DNA from: Escherichia coli
GTDB lineage: Bacteria; Pseudomonadota; Gammaproteobacteria; Enterobacterales; Enterobacteriaceae
NCBI RefSeq assembly: GCF_003334255.1
Contig: NZ_QOWU01000067.1
Length of the DNA stretch: 22,187 nucleotides
Direction: 5' to 3' (one strand)
Every line of letters begins with the position of its first letter. Positions within the stretch are counted from its first letter, which is position 1. Positions 13,750 to 14,063 of this stretch are shown here, piece after piece. A program made the translations under genes and the position numbers. The notes below the pieces were generated by a model. It was not told the DNA's origin. It worked only from the letters and a program-made list of their open reading frames with translations, and made no database searches.

Positions 13750-13758
13750 TTGGGGCCA
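13750..13758. repeat. fimS 9-bp inverted repeat (fimA-proximal)
   Basis: TTGGGGCCA, the exact reverse complement of 14055-14063. Confidence 0.85.
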
Positions 13759-14014
13759 TTTTGACTCATAGAGGAAAGTATCGCGCACAAACTTTTTCAG
13801 TTTATTTGTTGGCTTGATATTCTATTGTTATCTTTATTTATAGATTTTTATATTGCATGAGGTGTTTTTTGGAGAGAAGAATGAGGAAGTTGCTTCGAGA
13901 CACAGAAACGTTAGCTTTACATTTAGCGGAGGTGATGTGAAATTAATTTACAAGAGAAATGATTTACATATCAAACAGTTAGATGCTTTTTGTCGTTTTA
14001 TAATATTTTTATGC

Positions 14015-14044
14015 TTGAGAAAAAATACGTAACTTATTTATGAT
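14015..14044 (+). promoter_or_regulatory. fimA promoter inside fimS, oriented toward fimE (OFF)
   Basis: -35 TTGAGA (14015-14020), 18-bp spacer, -10 TATGAT (14039-14044) on the + strand, about 10 bp before the inverted repeat at 14055. Reads toward higher coordinates, while fimA lies at lower coordinates on the - strand. Confidence 0.6.
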
Positions 14045-14054
14045 ATGGACAGTT

Positions 14055-14063
14055 TGGCCCCAA
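14055..14063. repeat. fimS 9-bp inverted repeat (fimE-proximal)
   Basis: TGGCCCCAA, the reverse complement of 13750-13758. Confidence 0.85.

Follow-up and report, generated by a model that had tools for sequence, protein, structure and literature searches.

The type 1 fimbrial switch fimS is assembled in the phase-OFF orientation in an Escherichia coli contig

The 22,187-nucleotide stretch of Escherichia coli DNA analysed here (the window) carries an invertible promoter element that we identify, with a probability of about 95%, as the textbook E. coli type 1 fimbrial switch fimS, assembled in the phase-OFF orientation. The OFF call is secure, and no evidence on orientation contradicts it. The feature is already known and ordinary, and the finding is correct.

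Open reading frames and the RefSeq annotation of the G1/2 genome identify the window as the type 1 fimbrial region, carried on the reverse strand. Its genes run in the order yjiC, uxuR-uxuB-uxuA, gntP, fimH-G-F-D-C-I-A, the switch, fimE, fimB, nanC-nanM-nanS and a yjhR pseudogene. The open reading frames and the RefSeq annotation of near-identical genomes place fimS between fimE and fimA, with fimB-fimE upstream of it and fimAICDFGH downstream (Table 1). A scan of the whole window against Rfam at the gathering threshold gave zero matches. Beyond the fimbrial genes, a nanS-like reading frame within 19119-20126 (+) is open for 335 amino acids in the window; the identical sequence in G1/2 is labelled by RefSeq as a partial pseudogene of a sialate O-acetylesterase. 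Downstream of it, 20709-21949 (-) is taken up by a yjhR helicase pseudogene with a frameshift and by part of a restriction endonuclease gene.

Table 1. Features of the fim region in the window (positions count from the first nucleotide of the window; a full stop marks features without a strand).
Feature	Position	Strand	Basis or remark
fimI-fimC-fimD-fimF-fimG-fimH, remaining operon, under the fimS promoter in the ON state	7029-13011	-	ORFs and RefSeq annotation (coordinates of locus L004 minus 123)
fimA, major type 1 fimbrial subunit	13076-13630	-	ORF and RefSeq annotation of the identical G1/2 and ATCC 11775 sequence
fimS, invertible promoter element, 314 bp, OFF orientation	13750-14063	.	K-12 homology, in-silico BstUI assay, inverted copy in A134_1EC
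fimA-proximal 9-bp inverted repeat TTGGGGCCA, IRR by position, recombination site	13750-13758	+	first mismatch against the ON genome A134_1EC at 13759
Private SNP in fimS, T in the window, C elsewhere	13779	+	21 bp inside the fimA-proximal repeat, between repeat and BstUI site
BstUI site (CGCG), unique, at the promoter-distal end	13782-13785	.	one site; 188 bp to the end set by the OL4 (fimA) primer; assay PMC9993118
C-rich, G-poor stretch of the fimE-sense strand, richest part	13857-13934	-	compatible with the published Rho-dependent fimE terminator
Putative fimA promoter hexamers TTGAGA (14015-14020) and TATGAT (14039-14044), 18-nt spacer, facing the fimE 3' end	14015-14044	+	best sigma-70 match, identical to K-12
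fimE-proximal 9-bp inverted repeat TGGCCCCAA, reverse complement of TTGGGGCCA, IRL by position, recombination site	14055-14063	+	last mismatch against A134_1EC at 14054
fimE, tyrosine recombinase, ON-to-OFF biased, intact	14111-14707	-	amino-acid sequence identical to MG1655 FimE; annotation
fimB, bidirectional tyrosine recombinase, intact	15184-15786	-	amino-acid sequence identical to MG1655 FimB; annotation

An earlier note on this DNA had described a 314-bp element bounded by perfect 9-bp inverted repeats, and all of its coordinates proved exact. The core between the repeats measures 296 bp and has a G+C content of 30%. Two copies of the 9-bp repeat occur in the 22-kb window, against 0.26 expected, and 3 of 100 shuffled sequences also reach two; a scan for inverted repeats found further perfect inverted pairs of 9-10 bp within the same 900 bp. 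The repeats and the promoter match, each taken alone, do not go beyond chance. The element is significant because of its homology to the K-12 switch and because of a natural inversion whose breakpoints fall exactly at the repeats. On the first count, window and K-12 fimS agree at 302 of 314 positions, with 12 substitutions and no indels, and the stretch with the promoter and one repeat (14001-14063) does not differ at all. FimB and FimE are both 100% identical to the MG1655 proteins.

The natural inversion is seen in the genome A134_1EC, which differs from the window at 218 positions, all of them within 13759-14054. Re-inverting the core leaves a single mismatch. The earlier note had proposed this comparison, of the reverse-complemented 296-bp core with an ON sequence, as a check of its reading, and A134_1EC provides the match. 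Apart from the SNP at 13779, the fimS allele of the window therefore exists in either orientation, the breakpoints lying at the repeats.

To assign the orientation, we applied in silico the phase assay of Conway et al. 2023 (PMC9993118), which combines the primers OL4 and OL20 with a BstUI digest. The published product of 726 bp yields fragments of 539 and 187 bp in the OFF state and of 433 and 293 bp in the ON state, and the assay was calibrated experimentally on fimA-lacZ ON and OFF colonies (PMC9993118). In the window, the primer sites lie at 13596-13615 and 14302-14322, and digestion gives 188 and 539 bp, the OFF pattern. The same digest of a computationally inverted core gives 434 and 293 bp, the ON pattern. 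MG1655 (NC_000913.3) returns 188 and 540 bp, again OFF, and the window is colinear with this K-12 reference.

The position of known landmarks leads to the same assignment. Conway et al. 2023 (PMC9993118) describe the end with the Fis and BstUI sites as the 'right-hand boundary in the OFF orientation' or 'fimA promoter-distal end'. In the window, this promoter-distal end, with Fis, LRP-2 and BstUI sites, adjoins the fimA-side repeat. The primers BSREVBIO and BSFORBIO of the 135-bp probe delimit a contiguous segment, 13731-13865, that adjoins fimA, as published for phase-OFF DNA. Since the probe adjoins fimA, the promoter end must be the fimE-proximal end, where TTGAGA and TATGAT are located. 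The digest, the probe position and the colinearity with MG1655 thus bear out the OFF orientation that the earlier note had called, including the outcome of the restriction assay it had suggested. The UTI89 reference genome has likewise been reported as deposited in the OFF orientation (bioRxiv 10.1101/494401).

Weak sigma-70-like matches of 9 out of 12 positions, a level expected by chance in AT-rich DNA, occur inside fimS at 13825-13854 (+) and 13974-13945 (-). The second, TTGATA-N18-TAAATT, faces fimA in the present orientation and would be the promoter to invoke if the labels were swapped, that is, if the window were really ON and a promoter other than TTGAGA/TATGAT drove fimA. However, its match is at chance level and the experimentally calibrated BstUI assay classes the fragment pattern of the window as OFF, which makes swapped labels vanishingly improbable.

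The sigma-70 promoter match that the earlier note had placed on the + strand, aimed at fimE and away from the minus-strand fimA, is found at exactly its coordinates and is the best match. TTGAGA-N18-TATGAT scores highest in 13600-14200, with 10 of 12 positions agreeing with the consensus; it lies near one end of fimS, faces outward and is at the expected end, although the overall yield of the scan does not exceed the chance level, with 3 sites where shuffled sequences lead one to expect 2.6. In the present orientation, 67 nt lie between the end of the -10 hexamer and the fimE stop codon. After inversion of the core this hexamer is computed to lie at 13774-13769 (-), with 139 nt separating it from the fimA ATG downstream. 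We take these hexamers to be the putative fimA promoter, reportedly mapped by Olsen & Klemm 1994; a full-text literature search for the two hexamers named together with fimA found no relevant paper. The proposed identity with the fimA promoter follows that attribution and the limits on position set by Conway et al. 2023 (PMC9993118). In accordance with the latter, the hexamers lie at one end of fimS, and the published 'promoter-distal' Fis/BstUI end is the other.

FimB flips the segment in both directions, and FimE strongly favours the change from ON to OFF and prevails in cells that produce both recombinases (PMC9993118, PMC9096935). The bias of switching is set by IHF, Lrp, H-NS and Fis, whose binding is known in K-12, as are the recombinase half-sites on either side of the repeats (PMC9993118), and recombination takes place inside the 9-bp repeats. 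In the mechanism we propose for the window, FimB (in both directions) and FimE (mainly from ON to OFF), encoded just upstream, would recombine within the repeats and flip the 296-bp core, near one end of which a single sigma-70 promoter would face outward. When the switch is ON, the promoter end would abut the fimA-proximal repeat and fimAICDFGH would be transcribed. In the state captured here, it abuts the fimE-proximal repeat, so that the promoter would fire antisense toward the 3' end of fimE and fimA would be left without a promoter.

A Rho-dependent fimE terminator within fimS, joined to fimE only in the OFF orientation, is attributed to Joyce & Dorman 2002 and Hinde et al. 2005, as they are cited in PMC9993118. 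Along the fimE-sense strand through fimS, the ratio of C to G is 1.93 in the present orientation versus 0.52 in the inverted one. This strand asymmetry is compatible with what would be expected if Rho loads only in the OFF state, and we regard it as a compatibility check rather than as a mapping of the terminator. In OFF cells, a C-rich, G-poor read-through RNA of fimE sense would fit a Rho-dependent terminator that lowers the output of FimE in that state only.

To place the window among other assemblies, we used a 1111-bp region as a query against complete E. coli genomes, together with a second query in which the core was inverted. Of the 4726 complete genomes carrying the region, 4449 are colinear with the window (OFF) and 251 with the inverted-core query (ON), or roughly 95% and 5%; the remainder have deletions or insertions. 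Metagenome contigs with the fimS allele of the window were assigned by four 39-nt junction sequences, two for OFF and two for ON, the ON junctions being CAAAAGATGAAACATTTGGGGCCAAACTGTCCATATCAT and CTCTATGAGTCAAAATGGCCCCAATTGTCTTGTATTTAT. Among the 87 such contigs, most of the descriptively named ones being human-gut assemblies, 85 are OFF and none is ON; one is a chimera and one has no junction. OFF is the default and expected majority state of the phase-variable population. These counts (4449 versus 251 genomes, 85 versus 0 metagenome contigs) provide a baseline against which later reports of fimS in the OFF orientation can be judged.

Two of the deposited sequences deserve separate mention. 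The chimeric metagenome contig, OKXY01001771.1 (1-360), has two fimA-side junctions, one of ON type at 10-48 and one of OFF type at 315-353, and runs into unrelated sequence soon after the start of fimA. This is a mis-assembled palindrome spanning fimS, and its probable origin is a sample in which ON and OFF cells were mixed. In NZ_CM134208.1 (strain 126), which is deposited ON, the match covers fimE and fimA, and the annotation places an IS1 insertion within it. If the insertion lies in fimE, it would agree with a loss of the ON-to-OFF recombinase in this strain.

The ends of the window bear on how the orientation came to be recorded. The window opens with the final 77 nt of IS1 (1-77) and closes with the initial 77 nt (22111-22187), both in one orientation, and an annotated IS1A copy in TUM12357 matches the two exactly. 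At both boundary points G1/2 has ordinary chromosome, and the closest genomes have no IS1 there. TUM12357, the only genome that appeared to cover the window from 1 to 22187, was considered as a genome sharing the IS1 boundaries and rejected: its IS1 lies inside nanM, and the end matches are coincidental. The symmetry of the 77-nt ends suggests that the window is a whole short-read contig from a de Bruijn assembly with k=77, bracketed by two directly oriented copies of IS1. Such a pair could mediate deletion or mobilisation of the 22-kb fim region.

If the window is a whole k=77 contig, the orientation of its switch is the path that the assembler found best covered. A consensus assembly gives no ON:OFF ratio, and de Bruijn assemblers collapse an inversion bubble to one path. 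The recorded orientation might then be the assembler's pick between the two paths of a mixed ON/OFF population and say little even about the majority state. The ends that stop exactly 77 nt into IS1, typical of k=77, give the contig the look of a complete de Bruijn-graph contig as this explanation would have it, and the palindromic chimera OKXY01001771.1 shows that assemblers can mishandle the switch. Yet assemblers normally retain the better-covered path, and the two junctions in the window are both OFF and mutually consistent. Moreover, OFF prevails by 4449 to 251 among complete genomes, a good part of which are long-read assemblies, in agreement with the known bias of FimE. We consider an arbitrary choice by the assembler unlikely and infer that most cells in the sequenced culture were OFF.

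One nucleotide in the switch sets the window apart from its nearest genome. Position 13779 is the sole difference from G1/2 over 22,033 bp, and ATCC 11775, A134_1EC, MG1655 and TUM12357 all have C there. The T was found as an exact 71-mer or 61-mer in none of the approximately 4,570-4,690 complete E. coli genomes carrying the region, and the metagenome contigs comprise 87 with C and 0 with T. We also considered whether the T allele might be hidden in a genome of ON orientation, and rejected this on the basis of a query wholly inside the core, which had no exact match in 4567 genomes. The change is C to T on the + strand and turns GATGCT into GATACT on the fimA-sense strand. The resulting GATACT (13782-13777, -) was examined as a new promoter toward fimA and rejected as unsupported: the best -35 at a spacing of 16-18 nt agrees with TTGACA at only 2-3 of 6 positions, a TGn motif is lacking, and the site is absent from the promoter scan.

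The T at 13779 may stem from a sequencing error, or it may be a private mutation that is neutral or one that influences switching. By a post hoc calculation, a random single hit would have a chance of about 1.4% of falling in the 314-bp switch, and the SNP lies between the fimA-proximal repeat and the BstUI/LRP-2 region. That it is not neutral but adaptive, altering the binding of a cofactor or recombinase and shifting the ON/OFF bias of the strain, appears quite unlikely.

The same SNP has to be weighed when asking whether the switch is locked OFF, in which case the strain would be a heritable non-fimbriate clone unable to invert fimS. Strains described in this way exist (PMC9096935, bioRxiv 10.1101/494401), namely EHEC O157 and, under laboratory conditions, EPEC E2348/69 (PMC9096935; for the regulatory mutations of EHEC fimS, bioRxiv 10.1101/494401), and the C-to-T change near the fimA-proximal repeat, absent from complete genomes and metagenome contigs, could be read as a lesion of this kind. 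However, position 13779 is 21 bp from the repeat and outside the crossover site. The element has its full length of 314 bp, shows no indels relative to K-12 and has perfect repeats; FimB and FimE do not differ from the functional proteins of K-12; and the allele minus the SNP occurs inverted in A134_1EC. A search of the window for a locking lesion (deletion of fimS, damaged repeats, disrupted fimB or fimE) found none, the private SNP at 13779 being the only unusual feature. A locked switch is thus very unlikely, and the strain is inferred to be still able to switch.

Because OFF is the default, the orientation shows only the majority state of the culture and not a heritable phenotype. Of the alternatives offered by the earlier note, a non-fimbriate (OFF) population or clone, the first therefore stands in the sense of a majority-OFF culture, whereas the second, a heritable non-fimbriate clone, does not, given intact FimB and FimE and an OFF orientation in about 95% of genomes. 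The analysis also lends little weight to its statement that the OFF state matters for interpreting the fimbrial phenotype: this is the ordinary majority state and says little about the capacity to make fimbriae. With intact recombinases, and with OFF found in nearly every assembly, whether from the laboratory or a gut metagenome, the orientation is no predictor of the phenotype of a strain. For annotators, it means that the fimA gene of this contig lacks a connection to its promoter, and predictors of promoters and operons, as well as RNA-seq mapping on the assembly, will treat the switch as OFF. The practical value of this is small.

Comparing the switch of the window with that of K-12 (MG1655 NC_000913.3, 4542682-4542995) reveals the same length of 314 bp, the same 9-bp repeats, the same position between fimE and fimA and the same orientation. 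The K-12 fimS switch was reportedly the subject of Abraham et al. in 1985. Of the 12 substitutions that separate the two, 11 are common to other strains of the window's lineage and only the change at 13779 is private. Within this lineage, G1/2 is identical to the window over 78-22110 except for the one base, and ATCC 11775 shows 3 mismatches in 4111 bp. A134_1EC, unlike the window, carries the fimS of the lineage deposited ON. None of the three has T at 13779, and none has IS1 at the boundaries of the window.

The locked-OFF variants EHEC O157 and EPEC E2348/69 are deposited OFF like the window. In contrast to them, the window has no switch deletion and its recombinases are intact, and the O157 genomes found with the 1111-bp query match it at only about 94% identity. 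The overall principle of the element is shared with the hyxS/FimX and ipuS/IpuA-IpuB systems of UPEC, in which a short promoter-bearing segment is likewise flipped by a tyrosine recombinase of the FimB family (bioRxiv 10.1101/494401). However, these systems occupy other loci, none of them in the window, and have other repeats and control other genes.
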